Shown: positions 4,299 to 33,573 of the stretch, piece by piece
Layout of the letters: every line of letters starts with the position of its first letter
Position numbering within the stretch: the first letter of the stretch is position 1
Source of the DNA: Bacteroidia bacterium
GTDB lineage: Bacteria > Bacteroidota > Bacteroidia > Chitinophagales > JAUHXS01
NCBI GenBank assembly: GCA_030426955.1
Contig: JAUHXS010000001.1
Location: forward strand, 82,661-146,660
Direction: 5' to 3'
DNA: 64,000 nt
Program-made: the position numbers and the translations under genes
Notes under the pieces: model-generated
The model's input: the letters and a program-made list of their open reading frames with translations, nothing else
Database searches by the model: none
Told to the model about the DNA's origin: nothing

Positions 4299-4817
4299 TT
4301 AAATATAACGTCTAAAGTATAAGTAAATTTTAATCGCTTCGTAAAACTTGCTCATCGGAACATGACCAAGATATTTTAGTTGATTGTCGATGTATTCCTT
4401 TAGTGCATCGTAGTTTTCGTAATAAAACTGAGAAACCTGAAGTATCTTTTCTCCGCCTTTATAGAGATAAAGCACTTCGTAGTCAGCATGCTTTGAAGAT
4501 TGAATAACGGTCTTATAACCATCTAAATCTTTAAAATAAAAGCTTACGGTTTTGAAAAAGTGTTTAAAGTATGGATTCACAATTACCTGTTGCTCATCCA
4601 TAGCCAATTTATTGCCCTTTATTATAAGTTCAAAAAAACCAATGATCAGCATGGAGAAAAAGAGAAGTGATAAGCCAATATATAATAATTGTTGTTTGAT
4701 TTGAGTTTCTCCAGAGTATAAATACAACATCATACTAGTGGCACAAATTGAAAATACAATTAATACACTTGGGGCATAAATTGCCCACTCATATTTTGAG
4801 TTTACTTTAGCAGACAT
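4299..4817 (-). CDS. hypothetical membrane protein (2 predicted TM helices plus a soluble C-terminal domain)
   Basis: The track ORF 4299-5027 overlaps the MATE gene. The internal Met (MSAKVNSKYEWAIY...) at 4815-4817 removes that overlap and forms a TGATG stop/start junction with the upstream gene. Confidence 0.5.
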   Translation of the reverse strand: MSAKVNSKYEWAIYAPSVLIVFSICATSMMLYLYSGETQIKQQLLYIGLSLLFFSMLIIGFFELIIKGNKLAMDEQQVIVNPYFKHFFKTVSFYFKDLDGYKTVIQSSKHADYEVLYLYKGGEKILQVSQFYYENYDALKEYIDNQLKYLGHVPMSKFYEAIKIYLYFRRYI

Positions 4818-6115
4818 CAAGTAAATGTATAAATATATCGCTTTGCTAATATGGTTTGTATAAAACCTCTGGAAATCATAAATCCCTGTAGAGCAATCCA
4901 CAAAGCATGATTCCCAACAAAGGGATGCAGTAAATAAAATAATGGGATAAAAACTAAAAAGGTAGAAATAAACATGACATTTCTCATTGGGACAGATGCG
5001 GTAGTACCAATGTAGACTCCATCCCATATATACGGTGCTACATTAATAACTGATCCAATAACAGTCCAAAAGAGAAATGAATTAGCTAAATCAACAATTT
5101 CTGGTTTGTCCGTGAACAGCCCTAATAGACTTTTTCCTCCTAAACCGTATACTAAGGCATATATCATTCCTAATATCATACCCCAATAAAAAGATTTCTT
5201 GATAGCAAGCTTTAAGTTAAGTAAATCCTTTGCTCCATAGTATTTCCCTACAAGACTCTCTGCTGCATAGGCGAATCCATCAATTCCAAAAGACAAGATC
5301 ATAAATAACTGCAATAATATGGCATTGGCTGCCAGTATTTGATCTCCTAAAGTGGCTGACTTGGCAGTAAAGAAAGAAAAGGCAAAGATGAGGCATAATG
5401 TTCGAAGAAAAATATCTCTGTTTACAGTAAAGAATTTTTTTAATTCGTTCAGTTTATGAAAACGCTCTTTACTCCAGTAACTTAGGTAATGTCTATACGT
5501 TTTGAAAAACAAGACAATTGCTAATGTCAATCCTAGGTATTGTGCACAGACTGTACCTAGTGCAACACCATCAGAAGCCATGTTAAACTGGAATATAAAT
5601 AGTAGGTTGAATAGAACGTTAGCTACATTGATGAATATGGTGATATACATAGGGTATTTGGCATTTTGCATCCCGAGAAACCATCCAAGCATAGCATATA
5701 ATCCGACAGTTGCAGGAGCCGCCCAAATTCTAATGTTATAGTATTCTTTGGCAAGAGCCTCTACCTCTTGACTGCCCTCTAGTATATTAAAACTAATCCA
5801 TTCGATGGGAGATTGCAGTAATAAAACTAATATGCCGCCACATAATGCTACTACAGCTGCTCTACCTAATGAAACAATCACACCTCCATCGTCTTTATTG
5901 CCAAAGCTTTGGGCAACTAAACCTGTTGTGCCCATTCTTAAAAAGCTAAAACCGGAATAAATAAAGCTAAAAATGATACCTCCAAGTGCTATTGCACCAA
6001 TGTAGGCGCTTGATTCCATGTGTCCCATTAAGGCAGTATCCACTGCACCTAATAGCGGCACAGAGAGGTTGCTGATAATATTGGGAATGGCTAGGCGAAG
6101 GAGTTGTTTATTCAT
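4817..6115 (-). CDS. MATE family efflux transporter
   Basis: 432 aa and polytopic. The N-terminus NKQLLRLAIPNIISNLSVPLLGAVDTALMGH is the canonical start of a MatE domain, with a second MatE repeat in the C-terminal half. Confidence 0.85.
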   Translation of the reverse strand: MNKQLLRLAIPNIISNLSVPLLGAVDTALMGHMESSAYIGAIALGGIIFSFIYSGFSFLRMGTTGLVAQSFGNKDDGGVIVSLGRAAVVALCGGILVLLLQSPIEWISFNILEGSQEVEALAKEYYNIRIWAAPATVGLYAMLGWFLGMQNAKYPMYITIFINVANVLFNLLFIFQFNMASDGVALGTVCAQYLGLTLAIVLFFKTYRHYLSYWSKERFHKLNELKKFFTVNRDIFLRTLCLIFAFSFFTAKSATLGDQILAANAILLQLFMILSFGIDGFAYAAESLVGKYYGAKDLLNLKLAIKKSFYWGMILGMIYALVYGLGGKSLLGLFTDKPEIVDLANSFLFWTVIGSVINVAPYIWDGVYIGTTASVPMRNVMFISTFLVFIPLFYLLHPFVGNHALWIALQGFMISRGFIQTILAKRYIYTFT

Positions 6116-7130: not shown

Positions 7131-7222
7131 AGGTTGAAGCATTTCTCGTTTTGTTGATATCAAGTTAGTTTCTTTGCTTTTCAAACTATTGAAAGCACTG
7201 CAAATTCAAGTATTTTTATGTT

Positions 7223-10200
7223 ATGCGACTAGTAAGTCTAGAGACGAAGGGTTTTAAAAGTTTTGCCGACAAGACTGTAATTAACTTTAATGATAATATT
7301 ACAGGTATTGTGGGACCAAATGGATGTGGTAAATCCAACGTGATTGACTCTATTCGCTGGGTACTTGGCGAGCAGAAAACTAGCGCATTGCGTTCCGATA
7401 AAATGGAGAATGTCATCTTCAATGGCTCTAAAAAGCGTAAGGCTTCCAGTTTGGCTGAAGTTTCCTTGACATTTGAGAATACAAAAAACGTTTTACCCAC
7501 AGAATATACTACGGTTACCATTACCAGAATGCTTTATCGAAATGGCGAAAGCGAATATAAGCTGAATGGCATTTCGTGTCGGTTAAAAGATATTACCAAT
7601 CTATTCTTGGATACTGGGATTGGCAGTGACTCTTATGCCATTATTGAATTAGGAATGGTCGATGAGATACTAAATGATCGGGAACATTCCAGAAGAAGGT
7701 TGTTTGAGCAGGCTGCTGGAATATCAAAATATAAGACGCGAAAAAGAGAGACGCTGAATAAGCTCTCTGCAACTGAAGGAGATTTGAACAGGGTGGAGGA
7801 TTTACTTTTTGAAATAAATGACAATCTTAAATCTCTAGAATCCCAAGCAAGAAGAACTAAGCGATATTACCAGTTAAAAGAAGAATATCAAACTTTCAGT
7901 GTTGAGCATGCCAAACATACTTTGTCTGGTTTTGGAGAGCAGTTTAAGCGGTTGAAACAACAGCAGCAGGAAAATGAGGACAAACGTTCTAAGGTAGAGG
8001 TGGACTTTAAAAGCATTGACTCAACGGTAGAGAAAGAAAAGCTGCAAAGCTTAGAAAAAGAAAAGCAATTGTCTTCACTTCAAAAAGAGCTGAACGAAAA
8101 GTTGCATAAGCTTAGAGAGCAAGAAAATCAGAAGAACCTATTTTCTGAAAAAGCGAAATTCTTAACTGAAAAGAGAGAGTCCGTAACGCAGCAGATTTCT
8201 GATTTAAAAGATCAAAATAACTTCTTAGCTGAGGAAATAAAAGCATTAGAAGTTAAAAAGAATGAGGAACAAGCTTTATTTGATAAGGCTCAAAAAGAAC
8301 TAGAGCAATTACTAAAAGAAAAAGAGAAGCATTCGACTGAATACGAGAAAGCAAAAAAAGAACTTGGCGAAGTTCGGATTTCTTTACAAACGAAGGAAAG
8401 AGAATACTACGAGCTAGAAAAGAAATTAGAAGTAAATACATCACAATTAGAAAACTTGAAGTCTTCTCTGGAATTAAGTCTGACAGAGAAAGACAGTCGA
8501 GAAGGAGAACTAAAAGCTTTAACAAAAGAACTAAAGGAAAAAGAGCAAGAGCTTGACAGTGAGTCAGCTAAAATAAAAAAGCTAGAAGCGCAACAAGAAA
8601 CTATAGAGCAAGCCATTGGCGAAGCAAGGGGTACTATTGACACGGAACAACAAAAGTTGGTTGATCTTAATCGAAAGTTGGATGCCAAGCAAAACGAGTA
8701 CGATCTTACGAAAGATCTGGTTGATAGCTTAGAGGGCTTTCCTGAGTCCGTTCGTTTTTTGAAAAAGGAAGTTGCCGTAACAAAAAATGCGCCTCTGTTA
8801 TCTGATATTATTTCTTGTGGAGAAGAATATAGAGTTGCTATTGAAAATTATCTTGAGCCATATTTGAATCATTATGTTGTCAATAATAGAGAAGAGGCAA
8901 TCGTTGCAATCAATATTTTAAGTGATGCTTCAAAAGGAAGAGCAAACTTTTTCTTATTAGACCAGTTTAAAGCAGAAAAAGAAAAGAAAGGGAAAGTTGA
9001 CGGAGTATGGGCAACTGATGTGATTGATGTAGAGCAAAGGTATACTAGCTTGTGTCGATACTTGCTAAGAAATGTGGTTTTAGTTGATGGCAATGATGTA
9101 TCACCAAATGACGATGAAATATATGTTTCTAAAAATGGAAAATTTGTTCAATCGAGTCGAATAGTATCTGGAGGGGCAGTCGGACTTTTTGAGGGCAAGC
9201 GCATCGGACGGGGAAAAAATTTAGAAAAGCTCAAAAAAGAAATAGATCAACTTAATACGGAAATTAACAAGTGTAAAAAGCAAATAGACCAAGCTAGTGT
9301 TGCGTTAAAGAAACAGGAGGAGGCTTCTCGGTTGGATGCTATTAGAGGATTTAAAGACAGCTGGAATATTAAAAATAGTCAATTTATTAGCCTTAAGGCT
9401 AAGGTTGAAGGTTTGGCAGAGTTGATTAAAAACAACAATGATAAAGAGGAAGATGCAGCACAAAAGGTAAAGATTCTTGAGGCGGAAAATGAAAACGTAC
9501 AAAAGCAATTGGTAGGTGTAAAGGAATTGAAAAGTAGCTTGCAATTGAGGCTTGAAAAGCGGGAGGAGGGCTTTCGAGAAATTGATAAGCAACATGAATT
9601 GACAAGCCAAACCTACAACTCTAATAATATTGAAGTGCATAAGCTGCAAAATGCTTTGAATAGCACCATTCAGCAATTAACATATAAAGAAGAGCAACTA
9701 AAAAGCAATCAAAGCAAGATTGAAGCAAATCAGCAAGCACTCAAAGATGCGGATGATCAAATTAAAAACTCTTTTTCAAATTCTACCGATCTTGAAAAGT
9801 CTTTGATCAAGCTATATGAAGAGAAAGAGGCTTTTGAGAAAAAGCTCAATGTTTCCGAGGAAAACTACTACAAGTCAAAAGGGAATGTAAACGAGTTAGA
9901 ACAACAACTTAAAGAGCTTAGTCGTCAAAAAGAGCAATTAGATACATTGCTCAATGAGATCAGAGAGAAAGTGAATGAACTGAAGTTGACGACAACAAGT
10001 ATCCGAGAACGATTGTCGGTAGAATTTAATATTGATGTTAATGAAATTATCAATCAAGAGCCTGATCCTAAATACAATGCTGATGTTGTAGCCGAAAAGG
10101 TTGAGAAATTAAAGGGGCGATTGGATAATTATGGAGAGATCAACCCAATGGCAGTTGAAGCCTTTGACGAGATGCAGAAAAGGTTTGATTTTATTACCAA

Positions 10201-10744
10201 TCAAAAGAATGACTTGTTGAATGCCAAGCAGTCACTATTAGATACAATCGATGAGATTGATGGGATTGCCAAAGAAAAATTCTTAAACGCCTTTACTGAA
10301 GCAAGGGAAAACTTCATCAAAGTGTTTCACAGTTTATTTTCGGAGGAAGATCAATGTGATTTGATCTTATCAGATGAAGAAAATCCATTAGAAGCAAAAA
10401 TTGAGATTATTGCAAAGCCAAAAGGAAAGAAACCACTGACAATCAATCAGCTTTCAGGTGGAGAAAAAACGCTGACGGCAACAGCTTTGTTATTTTCATT
10501 ATATCTCTTGAAACCAGCACCTTTCTGTATTTTTGATGAGGTGGATGCTCCTTTAGATGATACGAACATTGCTAAGTTTAACAATATTATCAAAGACTTC
10601 TCTAGCGAGTCTCAGTTTATCATTGTCACACATAATAAACAAACCATGTCTTTTATGGATGTGATTTACGGCGTGACTATGGCCGAGGAAGGTGTGTCGA
10701 AGTTAGTTCCTGTTGATTTCAGGGCTTTGAAGAAGGCGAGTTGA
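7223..10744 (+). CDS. smc: chromosome segregation protein SMC
   Basis: 1173 aa. It has Walker A GPNGCGKSN, long coiled coils with a central hinge, the C-terminal signature LSGGEKTLTA, and Walker B FCIFDEVDAPLD. Confidence 0.95.
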   Translation: MRLVSLETKGFKSFADKTVINFNDNITGIVGPNGCGKSNVIDSIRWVLGEQKTSALRSDKMENVIFNGSKKRKASSLAEVSLTFENTKNVLPTEYTTVTITRMLYRNGESEYKLNGISCRLKDITNLFLDTGIGSDSYAIIELGMVDEILNDREHSRRRLFEQAAGISKYKTRKRETLNKLSATEGDLNRVEDLLFEINDNLKSLESQARRTKRYYQLKEEYQTFSVEHAKHTLSGFGEQFKRLKQQQQENEDKRSKVEVDFKSIDSTVEKEKLQSLEKEKQLSSLQKELNEKLHKLREQENQKNLFSEKAKFLTEKRESVTQQISDLKDQNNFLAEEIKALEVKKNEEQALFDKAQKELEQLLKEKEKHSTEYEKAKKELGEVRISLQTKEREYYELEKKLEVNTSQLENLKSSLELSLTEKDSREGELKALTKELKEKEQELDSESAKIKKLEAQQETIEQAIGEARGTIDTEQQKLVDLNRKLDAKQNEYDLTKDLVDSLEGFPESVRFLKKEVAVTKNAPLLSDIISCGEEYRVAIENYLEPYLNHYVVNNREEAIVAINILSDASKGRANFFLLDQFKAEKEKKGKVDGVWATDVIDVEQRYTSLCRYLLRNVVLVDGNDVSPNDDEIYVSKNGKFVQSSRIVSGGAVGLFEGKRIGRGKNLEKLKKEIDQLNTEINKCKKQIDQASVALKKQEEASRLDAIRGFKDSWNIKNSQFISLKAKVEGLAELIKNNNDKEEDAAQKVKILEAENENVQKQLVGVKELKSSLQLRLEKREEGFREIDKQHELTSQTYNSNNIEVHKLQNALNSTIQQLTYKEEQLKSNQSKIEANQQALKDADDQIKNSFSNSTDLEKSLIKLYEEKEAFEKKLNVSEENYYKSKGNVNELEQQLKELSRQKEQLDTLLNEIREKVNELKLTTTSIRERLSVEFNIDVNEIINQEPDPKYNADVVAEKVEKLKGRLDNYGEINPMAVEAFDEMQKRFDFITNQKNDLLNAKQSLLDTIDEIDGIAKEKFLNAFTEARENFIKVFHSLFSEEDQCDLILSDEENPLEAKIEIIAKPKGKKPLTINQLSGGEKTLTATALLFSLYLLKPAPFCIFDEVDAPLDDTNIAKFNNIIKDFSSESQFIIVTHNKQTMSFMDVIYGVTMAEEGVSKLVPVDFRALKKAS

Positions 10745-10780
10745 TTCCTGCTGATATGTTTCTATTTATTATTTCACTCT

Positions 10781-10916
10781 GTCATATTGATCCGCCAACT
10801 GGCGGAGAAAAATCTACCTTTGAGGTAATAGATGTTAGATGTCTCGTGCCTCGACATGACAAAGGCTTTAGGTTTTTGATTTATCGTGTCATATCGAGCA
10901 GAGCGAGATATCCACC
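10781..10916 (+). repeat. composite repeat: full GTCAT...ATGAC unit (10781-10860), spacer, and a left-half unit (10888-10916)
   Basis: The full unit is GTCATATTGATCCGCCAACTGGCGGAGAAAAATCTACC...GTTAGATGTCTCGTGCCTCGACATGAC, followed by AAAGGCTTTAGGTTTTTGATTT and GTCATATCGAGCAGAGCGAGATATCCACC. The same composite recurs at 11331-11461 and 14328-14448. Confidence 0.85.
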
Positions 10917-10940
10917 TTTGATTAAATAAGGAAAGAAGTT

Positions 10941-11246
10941 TTAATAACTCCAAATACCCTTATTTAAAGAAAGCCAATTAGGATTATCCTTTTCAATGAG
11001 TTTATCCTTTCGCTCCCTTTTCCATCCTTTGATTTCTTTTTCTCGTTCGATAGCATGATTTATATCACTATGCCTTTCCCAATAAACTAAATTGTAACAA
11101 TAATATTTTCTCGCAAAAGTTGCTGATTGACCTCTGTTTTCAAAATGCTCGTTTAATCTTCTTTCCAGATCATTAGTAACACCAGTATATAATGTTGTTT
11201 TCTTTGGATTGGTGACGATGTATACAAAATAGTTGCCAGCGTTCAT
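10941..11246 (-). CDS. stand-alone GIY-YIG nuclease family protein
   Basis: 101 aa. YFVYIVTN...LYTGVTNDLERRLNEH...EREKEIKGWKRERK matches the small single-domain GIY-YIG (URI-domain) family. Confidence 0.85.
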   Translation of the reverse strand: MNAGNYFVYIVTNPKKTTLYTGVTNDLERRLNEHFENRGQSATFARKYYCYNLVYWERHSDINHAIEREKEIKGWKRERKDKLIEKDNPNWLSLNKGIWSY

Positions 11247-14745: not shown

Positions 14746-15318
14746 CTAATAAGGTGTTCCTTCAGTTCTCTTTTTCTGAAGTGCTTCACAATACCAATTG
14801 TACTCAGACAAGAATTTTTTAATTCTCTTTTCATAAGCTTTATCAATGGCATTGCCGTTTTCGTCAAAGGAATCCTGAACTTTAGAAATTGGAAAAAGAG
14901 AAGGTAGAGTAACCATCCCTAGCTCACCTAATACTGCCCTTAAATGAACCGCTACTCGAACGCCACCGAAAGTGCCGGCAGAATAACAAGCAATACCAGC
15001 CGGCTTGAAGAAATACTCACTTTGGAAGTAGTCTAAAAGATTTTTAAGGGAAGCTGGAATACTATGGTTATATTCTCCAGATACAATCATGAATCCGTCT
15101 GCTTTTTTTAGAATTTGAGCAACTTGCTCTAATGATTCAGGAGCTTGTCCTTCTTCATATTCTTTATACATCTTATCTAAGAATGGTAGGTCATAAGCTT
15201 TGGCATCAACTAAAATTGCTTCGTTTCCTTCGGCATTGATTTGATTTACAATAAACTTGGCCGCTTTTATTCCTTGTCTGTTAGATCTGTGAGATCCGTA
15301 TATTACTGCAGTTGTCAT
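14746..15318 (-). CDS. NAD(P)H-dependent FMN reductase-family oxidoreductase
   Basis: 190 aa and flavodoxin-like. Contains MTTAVIYGSHRSNRQG...MIVSGEYNHSIPASLKNLLD, typical of the PF03358-type family. Confidence 0.8.
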   Translation of the reverse strand: MTTAVIYGSHRSNRQGIKAAKFIVNQINAEGNEAILVDAKAYDLPFLDKMYKEYEEGQAPESLEQVAQILKKADGFMIVSGEYNHSIPASLKNLLDYFQSEYFFKPAGIACYSAGTFGGVRVAVHLRAVLGELGMVTLPSLFPISKVQDSFDENGNAIDKAYEKRIKKFLSEYNWYCEALQKKRTEGTPY

Positions 15319-24486: not shown

Positions 24487-25023
24487 ATGAGTAAAGTGGA
24501 TAAGTATGTCGTCATCGCGGGTACTAACCGACCTCAAAGTAATACTAAGAAAGTAGCTAGTCAATACTTTGAAATGGTAAAAAGAAAAGGTGTAGATGTT
24601 GAATTGGTATGTCTTAAAGATGTTGACTGGGCATTTTATGATCCTAATCACTATACCAAAATTCAGCAAAGTGGTATTGACTTTCAGGAAAGGATAATGA
24701 TTCCTGCTACAAAGTTTTTATTCGTTGCTCCTGAGTATAATGGCAGTATTCCTGGGATATTAAAACTGTTTATAGATGCTTGTAATGTAAAGGAATCTTT
24801 TCATTTTAAAAAAGCTTGCTTGGTAGGGTTAGGATCGGGTAGAGGAGGTAATATGAGAGGGCTGGATCATCTAACAGGTATTTTGAATTATTTGAATATT
24901 GACGTTTACCATAAAGAAGTCACTTTGCCCGACATTAATAACAAGTTGAGGGATGGAAGGTTGTTTGATGAAGGTATTTTGAAGCGTATTGAAAAACAAA
25001 TTGAAGGATTTATAAAATTTTAA
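24487..25023 (+). CDS. NAD(P)H-dependent oxidoreductase (FMN reductase family)
   Basis: 178 aa. Contains VVIAGTNRPQSNTKKVA...FVAPEYNGSIPGILKLFID. It is a paralog class of the 14746-15318 gene. Confidence 0.75.
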   Translation: MSKVDKYVVIAGTNRPQSNTKKVASQYFEMVKRKGVDVELVCLKDVDWAFYDPNHYTKIQQSGIDFQERIMIPATKFLFVAPEYNGSIPGILKLFIDACNVKESFHFKKACLVGLGSGRGGNMRGLDHLTGILNYLNIDVYHKEVTLPDINNKLRDGRLFDEGILKRIEKQIEGFIKF

Positions 25024-25024
25024 A

Positions 25025-26674
25025 ATGCAAAAATATTTACGATTATTCTCGATAGTATTTGTTGTTGGATTATTGTCTTCTTGTGGAGGTGGTAAAAAAC
25101 AAGTTCCGAAAAAAATATTTAGATATAACGAATCTGCAGGGCTGATATCTCTAGATCCTGCATTTGCAAAAGATCAGGCAGTTATTTGGGCTACCAACCA
25201 ACTATTTAATGGCTTAGTGCAGATTAGCAATGATTTAGAAATAAAGCCCTGTATTGCCAAGTCCTGGGATATATCTGAAGACGGACTGGTCTACACTTTC
25301 CATCTTCGTAACGATGTTTTTTTTCACGATCATGATTTATTTGAAGGGGGCAAGGGTAGAAGGCTTGTAGCAAACGATGTTGTTTACAGCTTCAAGAGAG
25401 TTATGAATCCCCAAACAGCATCTCCGGGAGCCTGGATATTCAACGATAAAGTCGATACAGAGCAGCCTTTTTTAGCGCTTAACGACTCAACTTTTCAATT
25501 AAAATTAAAAGCGCCGTTTCGTCCAATGCTTGGAGTGCTTACCATGCAGTATTGCTCTGTCGTTCCAGAAGAGATTGTAACACATTATGGTAAAGATTTT
25601 AGAAAAAATCCAATAGGAACCGGACCTTTTAAGTTGAAGATATGGGAAGAAGGAGTCGTTTTGACAATGGTTAAAAATGGTAATTACTTTGAAATGGAAA
25701 ATGGCAAAAAGTTGCCATTCTTGGACGGCGTTAAGATAGAGTTTGCCGAGAATAAACATACTGCATTTTTAAATTTTATGTCGGGTGAATTGGATTTTTT
25801 CTCCGGTATTGATCCAAGTTTTAAAGATGATGTGATTGACAAAGATGGCACACTAAAAAAGGAGTATTCGGATAAAATTAACCTTTACAAAACACCTTAT
25901 CTAAACACAGAATATTTAGGCGTTTTGGTTGATCCGTCAAACCCAGCTATGGAAGAAAATCCGTTAAGCGATAAGTTGGTTAGAAAAGCGATTAATCATG
26001 GGTTTGATAGAAAACAAATGATTTCTTTTATGCGAAACAATATTGGAACACCTGCTGTATCTGGCTTCTTGCCAAAAGGATTACCTTCTTATCACGATCA
26101 TGCGGTTACAGGGTATGAGTACGATCCTGAGTTGGCCAGAAAGCTACTTTCAGATGCAGGTTATCCTAATGGTGAGGATATGCCAGAAGTACTCTTATTT
26201 ACTAATCCTTCTTATGTTGACTTTTGCACCTATATACAACGACAGTTGTCAGAAATAGGTGTCTCCATCGAGTTAGAAATAGTACAACCTGGTTTGCTCA
26301 GGGATTTAATGGCCAGATCAGAAGCAAGTTTTTTCAGAGGTTCTTGGATTGCAGACTATCCGGATGGAGAAAGTTATTTGGGGATGTTTTACAGTAAAAA
26401 CCCTGCTCCTCCAAACTATACCCGATTTTCTAATACAAAATTTGATAGCTTATATGAAGCGTCATTAAATGAAAACAATGATGCTAAACGTTATACAATG
26501 TATCAGGAAATGGATCGGATTGTTATCGAAGAAGCTCCTGTGATCCCGCTTTTTTATGACGAAGTCGTACGATTTATAAGAAAAGACGTTAAAGGATTAG
26601 CAGGTAATCCTATCAATTTGCTGATCTTGAAAAATGTGGACTTTCAATTGAAAAAAAGTGCTAAGACTTCTTAA
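25025..26674 (+). CDS. ABC transporter substrate-binding lipoprotein, family 5 (peptide/nickel type)
   Basis: 549 aa with lipobox LLSSCGGG. The sequence is SBP_bac_5-like throughout (e.g. FRYNESAGLISLDPAFA, WIADYPDGESYL). No permease or ATPase genes are adjacent. Confidence 0.85.
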   Translation: MQKYLRLFSIVFVVGLLSSCGGGKKQVPKKIFRYNESAGLISLDPAFAKDQAVIWATNQLFNGLVQISNDLEIKPCIAKSWDISEDGLVYTFHLRNDVFFHDHDLFEGGKGRRLVANDVVYSFKRVMNPQTASPGAWIFNDKVDTEQPFLALNDSTFQLKLKAPFRPMLGVLTMQYCSVVPEEIVTHYGKDFRKNPIGTGPFKLKIWEEGVVLTMVKNGNYFEMENGKKLPFLDGVKIEFAENKHTAFLNFMSGELDFFSGIDPSFKDDVIDKDGTLKKEYSDKINLYKTPYLNTEYLGVLVDPSNPAMEENPLSDKLVRKAINHGFDRKQMISFMRNNIGTPAVSGFLPKGLPSYHDHAVTGYEYDPELARKLLSDAGYPNGEDMPEVLLFTNPSYVDFCTYIQRQLSEIGVSIELEIVQPGLLRDLMARSEASFFRGSWIADYPDGESYLGMFYSKNPAPPNYTRFSNTKFDSLYEASLNENNDAKRYTMYQEMDRIVIEEAPVIPLFYDEVVRFIRKDVKGLAGNPINLLILKNVDFQLKKSAKTS

Positions 26675-26895
26675 TACGGTCTAGTCTTAGGAGATTTTCT
26701 AAATTAATCGGTATTAGTTGTAGGCGCGATTTCTTTTAAGGTTCGTTAAAGAGAGCGTTTAATTTCTTCTATTCACTACTAGCTGCTGCAAATCATTAAC
26801 ATCTTTTCATTAGGAATAGTAAAATGAAAGGATTTTTATCTCTAAAAAAGGCACTGAAATTACTATCATTGATACAACTAATAAAACTTAAACTC

Positions 26896-27012
26896 ATGAA
26901 CAAGATTAAAACAGTAAAAAAGTTAAACTACAAAGAGCTAGTAAAAATAGCGGGTAAAGGTTTAGACCAAATAGGAGCAATTGGCATGTATAATGCTTTA
27001 AAAAAACGATAA
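26896..27012 (+). CDS. small double-glycine-leader peptide, paralog 1 (38 aa)
   Basis: MNKIKTVKKLNYKELVKIAGKGLDQIGAIGMYNALKKR aligns along its whole length with the two following small ORFs. The start is chosen at the internal Met of track ORF 26824-27012 because it aligns with the paralog N-termini. Confidence 0.6.
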   Translation: MNKIKTVKKLNYKELVKIAGKGLDQIGAIGMYNALKKR

Positions 27013-27026
27013 TAAAAATTAAAAGG

Positions 27027-27170
27027 ATGAAACAAAAAACTTTAAAAGTTAAGTTAAATGAGAAACATCTCTTGAAAATAAAGGGAGGTGGACTTGATGA
27101 AGTAGGCATATTAACGATGTTTAATGTTGTCAAGAAAAAGAAACTGAATAAGGCCTTAAGAGGATATTAA
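27027..27170 (+). CDS. small double-glycine-leader peptide, paralog 2 (47 aa)
   Basis: MKQKTLKVKLNEKHLLKIKGGGLDEVGILTMFNVVKKKKLNKALRGY. It is absent from the ORF track (under 60 aa), lies 14 nt after paralog 1, and has an LxxxxLxKIxGG leader. Confidence 0.65.
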   Translation: MKQKTLKVKLNEKHLLKIKGGGLDEVGILTMFNVVKKKKLNKALRGY

Positions 27171-27184
27171 GTGAAATAATTAAA

Positions 27185-27310
27185 ATGAATGATATGAAAA
27201 CGAATACATTAAACAAAATAAAAGCCAAACACCTTTCAAAAATAAAAGGAGGAGGGATTGAAGAAGTCGGAATCTTAACAGCTACGAGAATACCTAAAAA
27301 AAGAGGCTAA
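27185..27310 (+). CDS. small double-glycine-leader peptide, paralog 3 (41 aa)
   Basis: MNDMKTNTLNKIKAKHLSKIKGGGIEEVGILTATRIPKKRG. It is absent from the ORF track and lies 14 nt after paralog 2. An alternative start at Met4 is position 27194. Confidence 0.65.
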   Translation: MNDMKTNTLNKIKAKHLSKIKGGGIEEVGILTATRIPKKRG

Positions 27311-27334
27311 TTCTATCATTGATCATTAAATTGA

Positions 27335-27380
27335 GGGTTTCTGCTATTGATAATTTAGTAGGAGCCCTTTTTGTTTTTTT
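27335..27380 (+). terminator. rho-independent terminator after the small-peptide array
   Basis: GGGTTTCTGCTA (27335-27346) pairs with TAGTAGGAGCCC (27356-27367), a 12-bp stem including 3 G-U pairs and a 9-nt loop. It is followed by TTTTTGTTTTTTTT. Confidence 0.55.
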
Positions 27381-27425
27381 TAGACTAGAAAAGTTGGTTG
27401 AGATCAGAGTATTTGCATGAACTAA

Positions 27426-28070
27426 CTAAAACAAACCATGCAATTCTGCATTAACCTTGTTGATAATACTTCCAAGGTCTTCTGGATTGGCTTCAAAGTC
27501 TATTTTATCCACGTCAATTATCAATAAATTTCCTTCTTTGTAAGTACTAATCCAAGCCTCGTAGCGCTCATTTAGCCTTTTTAAGTAATCTAGGCGAAGG
27601 TTTTCCTCGTATTCTCTTCCTCTCTTTTGAATACGGTCTACAAGTGTTGGAATGTCACTTCTCAGGTATATTAATAAATCTGGTGCTTTAATTAGAGAGC
27701 TTACCGACTCGAATAGTTTAAGATAACTATTATAATCTCTAGTCGATAGCAAGCCCATTGCGTGTAGATTTGCTGCAAAGATGTACGCATCTTCATAAAT
27801 GGTTCTGTCTTGAACGACGGAAGTCGAGCTATCCAACACTTTTAATAAATGATTAAACCTTAGATTTAGAAAGGATACCTGGAGATTGAAAGACCATCTA
27901 GGCATATCTTCATAAAAATCATATAAATATGGATTTTCTTCAGGACTCTCGTACTGAGCTTCCCAGTTGAAGTGTTTTGCAAGTAGACCCGTAAGAGTTG
28001 TCTTACCTGCACCAATATTGCCTGCAATGGCAATGTATTTATTTTTTGAAGTGCTGTCGTTTTTTTTCAA
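27426..28070 (-). CDS. deoxynucleoside kinase
   Basis: Has the P-loop IAIAGNIGAGKTTL and a dNK-family layout (VVQDRTIYED, ...RGREYE...). Confidence 0.85.
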   Translation of the reverse strand: MKKNDSTSKNKYIAIAGNIGAGKTTLTGLLAKHFNWEAQYESPEENPYLYDFYEDMPRWSFNLQVSFLNLRFNHLLKVLDSSTSVVQDRTIYEDAYIFAANLHAMGLLSTRDYNSYLKLFESVSSLIKAPDLLIYLRSDIPTLVDRIQKRGREYEENLRLDYLKRLNERYEAWISTYKEGNLLIIDVDKIDFEANPEDLGSIINKVNAELHGLF

Positions 28071-29075: not shown

Positions 29076-29197
29076 AATGTGAAATTACAAAAAGAAAAAT
29101 GGAAAAGCCTGTGTCAAAAAAAAGAAATTATTTTTTAATTCAACCACTCTCTTTTATAGAGCTTTTTTGTTATATTCAGAGTAGAAAAATATCAACT

Positions 29198-29773
29198 ATG
29201 AACTACAATGAAGGGTTTGGCTTGCTGGGTATGATGATTTCTATGAATAGTAGTATCTTTTTTATTATTTCTATTGCTTCCAGCCTTATTATTTTTCTTT
29301 TAATTCTTTTAGCCAGAATGAATCAGTCAATAGTGCTACCTAATTATGGGGAGGAAGAAGGTACTGTCGCAAGATTGACTAAAATACTTTTAGTAGATGA
29401 TAATGCCACCGTTAGAAAGGGACTAAGATATATCTTGTCTGGTACTGAAAATATTGAAGTTGTAGATGAAGCGGAGAATGGTAAGGTGGCATTAAGGAAG
29501 ATGAAAAGTGACATTGATCTGGTGATGATGGATGTAAGAATGCCAGAGATGGATGGGGTTACCGCGACTAGGCTGGTAAAACAGCGAAATCCCAAAACAA
29601 AGGTTTTAGCACTTTCTTTATATGATGATAAAGCCAGTATTAATTCTATGATGAAGCAAGGTGCAAGTGGTTATGTGCTAAAAGGTGACAGTAAAAGTGA
29701 AATATTAAATGCCATCAATTTGCTTAGTAAAAACCGAACTTATTTTAGTAGGAACATAGCACATGCGAACTAA
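29198..29773 (+). CDS. membrane-anchored response-regulator receiver domain protein (no output domain)
   Basis: One hydrophobic helix (SSIFFIISIASSLIIFLLILLA) is followed by a REC domain: KILLVDDNATVR, DLVMMDVRMPEMDG, VLALSL, YVLKG. It ends in a NarL-type linker (NRTYFSRNIAHAN) with no HTH. The start is uncertain (29099, 29198 or 29324). Confidence 0.7.
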   Translation: MNYNEGFGLLGMMISMNSSIFFIISIASSLIIFLLILLARMNQSIVLPNYGEEEGTVARLTKILLVDDNATVRKGLRYILSGTENIEVVDEAENGKVALRKMKSDIDLVMMDVRMPEMDGVTATRLVKQRNPKTKVLALSLYDDKASINSMMKQGASGYVLKGDSKSEILNAINLLSKNRTYFSRNIAHAN

Positions 29774-30639: not shown

Positions 30640-30688
30640 GTGATAAGTTGTGCCTGTTTTTGTCTTGCATATTTATTATTTTTGTTTT

Positions 30689-30976
30689 ATGCATAGAAGT
30701 GATGTAAATAATAAGATTGTTCAATATTTGAAATCTTTTAACCCTAGTAGAATAGGCATTTTTGGATCATTTGCACGTGGAGACGTCAACTCTTCAAGTG
30801 ATATTGACATCTTGGTTTCTTTTAAAGGTGGTCTAGGGCTTTTGCAGTTGGTTAGAATTGAGAGAGAGCTTTCTAACGTGCTAGGCAAAAAAGTAGACCT
30901 TGTGACTGAGCGGTCCTTGAAAAATGAAAAACTAAAGAAATATATATATAATGATCTTCAAATAATTTTTGAATGA
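30689..30976 (+). CDS. nucleotidyltransferase, MntA-type antitoxin (type VII TA)
   Basis: RIGIFGSFARGDVNSSSDIDILVSF is the GSxxRG...DxD minimal nucleotidyltransferase motif. An ATGA 4-nt overlap links it to the downstream DUF86 gene. The start is taken at the ATG at 30689 rather than the upstream GTG. Confidence 0.8.
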   Translation: MHRSDVNNKIVQYLKSFNPSRIGIFGSFARGDVNSSSDIDILVSFKGGLGLLQLVRIERELSNVLGKKVDLVTERSLKNEKLKKYIYNDLQIIFE

Positions 30977-31306
30977 AAAGAGATGATTCCATATACATAG
31001 ATCATATATTGGAATCTTTAAATAAGATTACTGAATATACGGAAGGATACACTGAGAGTAGTTTTCTTGATTCTAATAAAACACAGGATGCTGTAATTCG
31101 ACAATTGGAAATAATCGGTGAAGCCACAAAAAAGATTTCAAAAGAGTTTAAAGAAAAATATTGCGAAATACCTTGGTCAGATATGGCAGGTATGAGAGAT
31201 AAATTGATTCACGACTTATATTGATGTTGATCTTTGGATTGTTTGGCAAACGGTATCTAAAGATATTCCTGAATTGTTAACAATGATAAAGTCCGTCAAT
31301 CCCTAA
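30973..31306 (+). pseudogene. HepT/DUF86 RNase toxin, frameshifted inside the RX4HXY motif
   Basis: The ORF ends ...GMRDKLIHDLY* at 31224. The +1 frame continues from 31220 as IDVDLWIVWQTVSKDIPELLTMIKSVNP* to 31306. Deleting one T at 31216/31217 restores RDKLIHDYIDVD..., a full-length DUF86 of about 110 aa. Confidence 0.7.
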
Positions 31307-32838: not shown

Positions 32839-33573
32839 TTATTTTTCTTTGGAGGCTTCTTCCTCCTTAACTTCTGCTTTGGGAGTCTCTTCTTTTTCAG
32901 CTTTGGTTTCTTCTTTCGCTTCTACTGGCGCTTCTTCTTTCTTGTTGTCTTCGGGCTTTTCCTCGGCTTTCGGAGTTCCTTCTTTAGCTGCTTCAGCAGG
33001 CTTTTCTTCAGCTTTTGGTTCTTCCTTTACCTCTTCAGCAGGAGCCTCTTCTTTAGCTTCAGGCTGTGCAGGAGCTTCTGCATCTGTAGGTGTCTCAGTA
33101 CTTGCTTCGGCGGCTGGTGCTTCCTCAGGAGCATTTGCCGCTTCTTCTTCTTTTAGCTTTGCTGCCAACTCGTCTGCTTTTTTCTTTGCCGCTTCTTCTT
33201 TCTTTTTCTTTTTAGCTTCTACTTGTTTTGCTGTTCTTGATTCTTTGTCTTTTAACCAAGCCTCAACCAGTTTGTCAACTTCTTCTTCTTTGACGGCACC
33301 TTTTGCAACACCTCTCAATAAGTGTTTTTTGTACAATGCGCCTTTAAATGATAAAATTGCTCTAACCGTTTCTGTTGGCTGGGCTCCTTTTTGTAACCAC
33401 TCAACTGACTTGTCAATATCAACATCTATTTGAGCAGGTACGGTTGTTGGATTGTAAACACCTAGCTTTTCAATATATTTTCCATCTCTTGGAGATCTAA
33501 TGTCTGCAACAACTATCTTGTAAAAAGGTCTTGCTTTACGACCGTGTCTTTGTAATCTTATTCTTGTAGCCAT
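32839..33573 (-). CDS. rpsP: 30S ribosomal protein S16 with a long acidic low-complexity C-terminal extension
   Basis: The N-terminus [42 protein letters not shown] is canonical S16. Residues from about 100 to 244 are K/E/A/P-rich. Confidence 0.92.

Follow-up and report, generated by a model that had tools for sequence, protein, structure and literature searches.

A tandem array of three short genes whose peptides carry double-glycine-like leaders in a Bacteroidia genome

A stretch of 64,000 nucleotides from a Bacteroidia bacterium of the Chitinophagales (contig JAUHXS010000001.1 of assembly GCA_030426955.1, positions 82,661 to 146,660; hereafter the window) contains three short, consecutive and paralogous genes, P1, P2 and P3, whose products begin with a segment built like a double-glycine (GG) leader. 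This leader-like architecture goes beyond chance. P1-P3 belong in kind to the well-known class of GG-leader precursors, and so far they come from a single genome and stand outside every curated family. We regard it as an even call that they are a lineage-specific tandem array of paralogous secreted-peptide precursors of the GG-leader kind, served by a remote peptidase-containing ABC exporter (PCAT).

The peptide gene array and its coding signature

The array is flanked by an SBP_bac_5 lipoprotein gene (the SBP gene; 25025-26674, forward strand) and by a convergent deoxynucleoside kinase (dNK) gene (27426-28070, reverse strand). Its features, with lengths in amino acids (aa), are listed below.

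26824-26895, forward strand: possible N-terminal extension of P1 by 24 codons, giving a 62-aa version; the Logan gene call uses the start at 26824
26864-26871, forward strand: candidate Bacteroidota -7 promoter box TATCATTG, a weak and putative match with one mismatch to TAnnTTTG; TTTA at 26835
26896-27012, forward strand: P1, 38 aa, putative leader MNKIKTVKKLNYKELVKIAGK followed by putative core GLDQIGAIGMYNALKKR; the NCBI gene call P0001 is identical
27027-27170, forward strand: P2, 47 aa, putative leader MKQKTLKVKLNEKHLLKIKGG followed by putative core GLDEVGILTMFNVVKKKKLNKALRGY; called by NCBI (P0003) and by Logan
27185-27310, forward strand: P3, 41 aa, putative leader MNDMKTNTLNKIKAKHLSKIKGG followed by putative core GIEEVGILTATRIPKKRG; Logan calls this 41-aa form
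27194, forward strand: alternative start of P3, giving 38 aa (MKTNTL...), the NCBI form P0002
27333-27381, forward strand: intrinsic terminator closing the array, with a 14-bp stem (5 G-C and 4 G-U pairs) at 27333-27369, a 9-nt loop and then TTTGTTTTTTTT to 27381

The initial annotation of this DNA described three consecutive open reading frames (ORFs) on the same strand with 14-nt spacers, and the layout is as described if P3 starts at 27185. With the start at 27194 the spacer becomes 23 nt, and the resulting MKTNTL aligns better with MKQKTL of P2. The genes were also said to be unannotated, which was true of the ORF track used at the time but not of public data. P1-P3 are already called as P0001-P0003 in the NCBI genome, on a contig of 674,394 bp. 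All three are also called in the Logan assembly of run ERR3420974, which matches the window over 5,955 bases with 100% identity. The preference for the internal Met at 26896 as the start of P1 is supported, because the 22 nt that end in ATGAA at this start (26879-26900) repeat the P1-P2 spacer (27010-27031) with 82% identity, and because the NCBI call and the paralogue alignment agree on it. The extension at 26824-26895 is probably an untranslated 5' region, and the candidate -7 box falls inside it. A scan for sigma-70-type promoters found sites no more frequently than in shuffled sequence.

The rho-independent terminator proposed for the end of the array was recovered as a hairpin and a T-run. 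The 91-nt terminator region (27305-27395) folds with a minimum free energy of -23 kcal/mol (z = -2.6), and only 1 of 200 shuffles was as stable; the hairpin escaped a consensus terminator scanner, which accepts no loop longer than 8 nt. The fold after the SBP gene is not significant (z = -1.5), and the array may therefore be co-transcribed with that gene.

Several features of the codons point to translation. P1, P2 and P3 align without gaps over a block of 30 codons, in keeping with the gapless alignment through the conserved box that was first reported. Differences between P2 and P3 number 7, 7 and 21 at the first, second and third codon positions; of the codon changes in this pair, 11 are synonymous and 12 non-synonymous. 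Nei-Gojobori non-synonymous and synonymous distances (dN/dS) across the gapless block of 30 codons are 0.45/1.42 for P1-P2 and 0.77/1.35 for P1-P3, while for P2-P3 dN is 0.32 and dS is saturated. Both alternative frames of the block contain multiple stops. By this third-position excess, by dN lying below dS and by the stops in the other frames, P1-P3 are shown to be translated, diverged paralogues under purifying selection rather than a repeated non-coding element, and the earlier argument from frame conservation is upheld. P1 is the most diverged of the three copies. No known RNA was found with Rfam in the region 26400-27700 at E up to 1. An antisense ORF of 75 aa with a TTG start (26906-27133, reverse strand) was judged spurious; it is rich in Phe and Leu because it mirrors the Lys codons of P1 and P2, and it shows no conservation opposite P3.

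Leader-like architecture and core peptides

The N-terminal 21-23 residues of the peptides are Lys-rich and form the putative leaders, of which those of P2 (21 aa) and P3 (23 aa) end in GG. Counted back from the putative cleavage site, the residues are as follows.

P1: L at -12, E at -8, L at -7, I at -4, G at -2, K at -1
P2: L at -12, H at -8, L at -7, I at -4, G at -2, G at -1
P3: I at -12, H at -8, L at -7, I at -4, G at -2, G at -1

All three peptides share one common register of hydrophobic residues at -12 (L/L/I), -7 (L) and -4 (I) with Gly at -2. GG leaders are defined as segments of about 15-30 residues ending in GG, GA or GS, and the ComA consensus is Leu(-12)-x3-Glu(-8)-Leu(-7) (PMC6363468). 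Mutagenesis and a co-crystal structure of LahT150 provide the evidence that the C39 domain reads positions -4, -7 and -12: a hydrophobic groove of LahT150 reads them, and cleavage is abolished or strongly reduced when they are changed to Lys or Asp. Glu at -8 can be dispensed with, as can position -3, and the final 13 residues of the leader suffice for recognition (PMC6363468).

The resemblance was scored with a matrix of 13 columns made from 13 canonical leaders entered by hand, against a background of 3480 small ORFs taken from Bacteroidota DNA (0.98 Mb). P1, P2 and P3 scored 10.9, 19.1 and 14.2 bits, the best of the 3480 background ORFs scored 9.2 bits, and true leaders scored between -2.3 and 32 bits in a leave-one-out comparison. 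When ComC was removed from the matrix the scores were 10.4, 14.2 and 9.5 bits, and 1 background ORF reached at least 9.5. The matrix chose the identical cleavage register in all three peptides. A looser pattern, which asks for a hydrophobic residue at each of -12, -7 and -4 and then G[GAS], is found in 0.7% of the frames of 30-90 aa that start with Met (0.93 Mb of Bacteroidota DNA), and by itself it is weak evidence. Weak matches in the curated libraries include three to GG-leader families, namely ComC twice and BLP_Lacticasei (E = 0.053); those to SecE, DUF5836 and DUF7645 look like chance. In a single BLASTP comparison, VKLNEKHLLKIKGGGL of P2 and VALKEKDLQKIKGGEM of Streptococcus pneumoniae ComC1, a sequence entered by hand, were identical at 10 of 16 positions at the leader end (E = 2e-4).

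After the putative cut, P1-P3 share the box G-[LI]-[DE]-[EQ]-[VI]-G-[AI]-[IL], which is followed by a divergent stretch and an end of the form KK[KR]. The cores of P1, P2 and P3 would be 17, 26 and 18 aa long with net charges of +2, +4 and +2; they contain no Cys and few Ser or Thr, and the earlier description of divergent, cationic, Cys-free tails was accurate. Each core begins acidic, turns hydrophobic in the middle and ends basic, and the helical hydrophobic moment of the whole core is low (0.06-0.18). AlphaFold2, run on the three-sequence alignment, predicted a helix at residues 3-18, a break at GGG and a helix at 23-45 with low confidence (pLDDT 66), a model that would be compatible with a leader helix joined to a core helix and with a hairpin alike. 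Solved structures gave only chance matches to uridylate kinase (E = 0.2). No hydrophobic signal of the Sec type occurs in the P1-P3 sequences, so a dedicated exporter would be needed for any secretion. A phage origin of the array was considered and dropped, as PHROGs gave no match.

Proposed pathway, distribution and competing explanations

If P1-P3 are secreted-peptide precursors, a PCAT encoded elsewhere in the genome, whose existence is an assumption, would bind the leader helix and cleave P2 and P3 after Gly-Gly. The same PCAT, aided by a periplasmic adaptor as well as by an outer-membrane factor, would export the products, predicted to be linear, Cys-free, cationic and unmodified peptides of 26 (P2) and 18 (P3) residues. 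P1, with Lys at -1, would be poorly cleaved or may be a decaying copy. We infer that an inducing or signalling peptide fits slightly better than a pore-forming bacteriocin because of the short cores of 17-26 aa, the low amphipathicity, the acidic-hydrophobic-basic layout and the lack of an immunity gene. Scattered prochlorosin precursors are one example of precursors unlinked from their peptidase. More broadly, a GG peptidase with many precursors to serve often has its gene at a distance from theirs (PMC8939145), and predictions of GG-leader class II peptides are widespread in Bacteroidota, where 4,494 unique sequences have been reported (PMC12648112).

Searches beyond the window returned the array itself. 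A word-indexed search of 5.8 billion proteins found P1-P3 only, and an exhaustive profile search of 1.84 billion representative proteins found P1-P3 and P0006, a repeat protein of 1693 aa, and no homologue. P0006 was rejected as an artefact because about 20 sub-threshold matches to 'ATKIAGAGPASVGI' had been summed. Scans of the JGI metagenome and IMG/VR viral contigs with degenerate patterns gave pattern matches, of which tblastn confirmed none. The surroundings were compared at no fewer than 80 genome loci around dNK relatives of 63-71% identity, spread across Bacteroidota, and peptide relatives were absent at the 80 dNK loci listed. The closest relative genome, assembly ERZ25070591 (dNK 89% and SBP protein 72% identical; about 74% DNA identity over trpS-dNK), has its trpS-dNK block on another contig than its SBP block, with a peptidase S9 gene directly after the SBP gene and a convergent TPR/PD40 gene after dNK. 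The peptide profile had no match in this assembly, and the array is absent at both syntenic flanks. Likewise, the nearest relatives found through the SBP protein (72% and 67%) or through dNK (89%, 76% and 75%) have other genes at both flanks and no hidden Markov model match. Because relatives lack the peptide genes and the flanks are split or rearranged in them, the array is lineage-specific and sits at a synteny break. The initial annotation had proposed to test conservation in related genomes with tblastn; no homologue turned up in the relatives, metagenome or viral contigs searched.

A number of observations weigh against the proposal of exported GG-leader peptides. P1 reads G-K-G at the site, without Gly, Ala or Ser at -1 and so without a double glycine, and invariance across the copies falls on G20 and G22 rather than on the pair G20-G21. 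The leaders, with net charges of +5 to +6, are more basic than typical GG leaders. The best match of P2, to NCBIfam ComC_Streptococcus (NF033214; E = 0.002), reaches 17.7 bits against a cut-off of 50, and that of P3, to Pfam ComC (PF03047; E = 0.058), reaches 13.6 bits against 20.4. The leader models named at the outset as a check, TIGR04149 (GG-Bacteroidales) and TIGR01847, gave no match at E up to 10, at which HMMER filters may hide very weak ones; other curated Bacteroidota leader or RiPP (peptide made by the ribosome and modified after translation) precursor models in NCBIfam gave none at E up to 10 either. No curated family accepts P1-P3 as members. The original claim of a double-glycine leader holds for the shared register and for scores above those of the 3480 background ORFs, but not for the G-K of P1 or for any curated model. 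The peptide family is known from one genome only, so comparative support is limited to the three paralogues. Pfam scans covered all window ORFs that stand alone and reach 100 aa or more, with ten longer ORFs nested inside these left out. These scans found no C39 peptidase, ABC exporter, HlyD or outer-membrane factor, and no histidine kinase, radical SAM, LanM or ATP-grasp protein. No candidate for a small membrane-protein (immunity) gene was found on either strand of 26675-27425. The scans agree with the first description of a window devoid of processing and export machinery. The absence was then regarded as unusual; it is real within the window but not in itself anomalous, since GG peptidases are commonly unlinked (PMC8939145).

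Some of these same points would suit a new family of non-secreted, uncleaved, basic two-helix microproteins, made up of a helix, a G-x-G turn and a second helix, that only mimic a GG leader and have an intracellular role such as binding to a membrane, a nucleic acid or a partner protein. The invariant G20 and G22 would form the turn, P1 would need no GG, and the strongest conservation, which runs across the putative cleavage site from about -9 to +9, the unusually basic N-terminal halves, the missing exporter and immunity genes and the absence of a passing family model would all be expected, as would the helix-break-helix of the low-confidence AlphaFold2 model. A turn alone, however, leaves unexplained why all three copies space their hydrophobic residues at -12, -7 and -4 from the Gly at -2 and score above all 3480 background ORFs. 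Moreover, the tails vary in sequence and in length (17, 26 and 18 residues), which would not be expected of a folded hairpin whose partner helix is fixed. We consider such microproteins possible but unlikely. Still less probable is that the array is a stranded, non-functional remnant left behind at a rearrangement once the exporter and partner genes had been lost, or a set of spurious ORFs in an AT-rich spacer. The position at a synteny break, with the SBP and trpS-dNK blocks of the closest relative on different contigs that lack the peptides, would fit a remnant, as would the lost Gly at -1 of P1, the lack of homologues elsewhere in the databases searched and the low GC content (29% against 36% for the window). 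Decay would not, however, keep three frames open at such divergence, with dN below dS, an excess of third-position changes, and start contexts and terminator intact.

We find it more doubtful again that P1-P3 are RiPP precursors whose tailoring enzymes are encoded elsewhere in the genome, for instance with graspetide-like cross-links from the acidic pair after GG to the C-terminal lysines before GG cleavage. All three cores keep the [DE][EQ] pair as well as the KK[KR] tail. Graspetide loci of Bacteroidota commonly show GG motifs and precursors duplicated in tandem, with a GG peptidase that is usually unlinked (PMC8939145). Tailoring enzymes, unlike the peptidase, normally adjoin their precursors, and neither an ATP-grasp, radical SAM/SPASM or LanM enzyme nor any other maturase was detected among the scanned ORFs of the 64 kb. 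The lack of Cys, the scarcity of Ser and Thr and the absence of any match to Bacteroidota RiPP precursor models also argue against modification. P1-P3 differ from graspetide precursors in having no ATP-grasp ligase among the scanned window ORFs, and from GG-Bacteroidales precursors (TIGR04149) in matching no leader model and having no radical SAM gene among these ORFs.

Within the preferred reading, that of exported GG-leader peptides, known systems offer several parallels. The best database hint is ComC. P1-P3 resemble the ComC and BlpC precursors of streptococci (PF03047, NF033214) in an overall size of about 40 aa, a leader of about 21-24 aa and a short, Cys-free mature part (17-26 aa here) that runs from acidic residues through a hydrophobic middle to an end rich in Lys and Arg; the leader ends as ...EK-x-L-x-KIKGG, with the 10 of 16 identities to ComC1. 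Unlike ComC, P1-P3 score far under the family cut-offs, occur in a Gram-negative Bacteroidota host, come as three tandem copies instead of one, include a copy (P1) that lacks GG, and have neither an adjacent comDE-like pair of histidine kinase and response regulator nor a ComAB-type exporter within the 64 kb. We know of no GG-leader peptide pheromone system described in Bacteroidota. That P1-P3 are ComC-like signalling peptides of Bacteroidota, with a remote PCAT and an unlinked receptor, is accordingly an improbable special case; if it were true, it would place such a pheromone system in this phylum.

The unmodified class II bacteriocins, including the bacteroidetocins, likewise have a GG leader, hydrophobic residues at -4, -7 and -12 and cationic cores (PMC6671954), and tandem paralogous genes are common at their loci. 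Conservation extending past the cleavage site was at first taken to be atypical of bacteriocins, but class IIa offers a clear precedent, as its cores combine a conserved N-terminal box, YGNGVxC, with a divergent C-terminus (PMC6671954). Bacteroidetocins resemble the array in having no immunity gene; they differ in their leaders of 15-16 aa, in their cores of 42 aa with 2-4 Cys, and in being always linked to a PCAT and a transmembrane protein and usually to a thiol oxidoreductase (PMC6671954), whereas P1-P3 have cores of 17-26 aa, no Cys, a low amphipathic moment and no linked genes. Prochlorosin precursors of the ProcA/LahT type are encoded far from the C39 peptidase and exporter, occur as multiple diverged paralogues in one genome and are recognized by the final ~13 residues of the leader (PMC6363468). 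They have long leaders of the Nif11 or nitrile-hydratase type and modified cores rich in Cys, Ser and Thr, in contrast to the minimal leader of P1-P3 and a core that bears no sign of modification sites.

Were P1-P3 exported, the GG-leader peptides of Bacteroidota would gain a linear core type that is very short and free of Cys. The array would then also be a clean instance of precursors fully uncoupled from their exporter. Genome mining anchored on context misses that class by design, a limitation listed in PMC12648112. The practical value is small for a single-genome family of putative function from a single, uncultured-looking lineage. The main use of the array is as a calibrated example, in which a leader-only signal can exceed chance yet not settle family membership or function.

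Neighbouring genes and other features of the window

Around the array the window consists of ordinary chromosomal genes, among them those for SMC, MutS, ParA/ParB, TrpS, S16, RimM, phosphoglucomutase and folate/queuosine-type enzymes. Sorting domains for type IX secretion on several window proteins place the organism in Bacteroidota, and the GC content of the window is 35.7%. The closest named relatives of the SBP protein are metagenome-assembled genomes of Chitinophagales and Saprospiraceae. At 29% the GC content of the array is lower than that of its flanks (36-37%), largely because of its Lys-rich coding. A functional tie of P1-P3 to the upstream SBP_bac_5 lipoprotein was rejected, because relatives without the peptides also keep the SBP gene together with ParA, ParB and the FMN reductase. 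There are two paralogous genes for NADPH-dependent FMN reductases 9 kb apart, at 14746-15318 (reverse strand) and 24487-25023 (forward strand), and the closest relative keeps the latter directly upstream of its SBP gene.

On the other side of the array, beyond trpS-dNK and 1.8 kb away, lies the only receiver-domain protein of the window (29099-29773, forward strand). It has 224 aa with a hydrophobic, transmembrane-like N-terminal segment and a receiver domain at residues 96-207, and no output domain; no histidine kinase was found in the window. A weak relative (33% identity) occurs at 1 of the 80 dNK loci listed, and a functional tie of P1-P3 to this protein found no support. In one relative (L085, run SRR28552070; dNK 76% identical), the region 7186-11039 has a Porin_10 gene after trpS-dNK, and this is followed by converging genes for an outer-membrane factor, a membrane-fusion protein and an ABC exporter of 565 aa. 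The exporter matches only Pfam ABC_membrane and ABC_tran and is too short for a PCAT, and the tripartite system has no counterpart at the same position in the window.

The segment 29952-31224 contains tRNA-Gly(GCC) and tRNA-Leu(TAA), followed by a SnoaL-like gene and a gene for an MNT-type nucleotidyltransferase (30650-30976). An ORF of 83 aa (30973-31224) overlaps the latter by 4 nt and contains RDKLIH, a HEPN-like R-x4-H motif. The region 30650-31224 is probably an MNT/HEPN toxin-antitoxin pair beside a tRNA site. The ORF for ribosomal protein S16 (32839-33573, reverse strand) is 244 aa long; the S16 model covers residues 9-67 and a long C-terminal extension follows. Two long ORFs on the reverse strand, 4299-5027 and 4817-6115, overlap by about 210 nt; the second encodes a MatE transporter and the 242-aa product of the first has no family match. 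Their overlap could reflect start-codon ambiguity or a frameshift.

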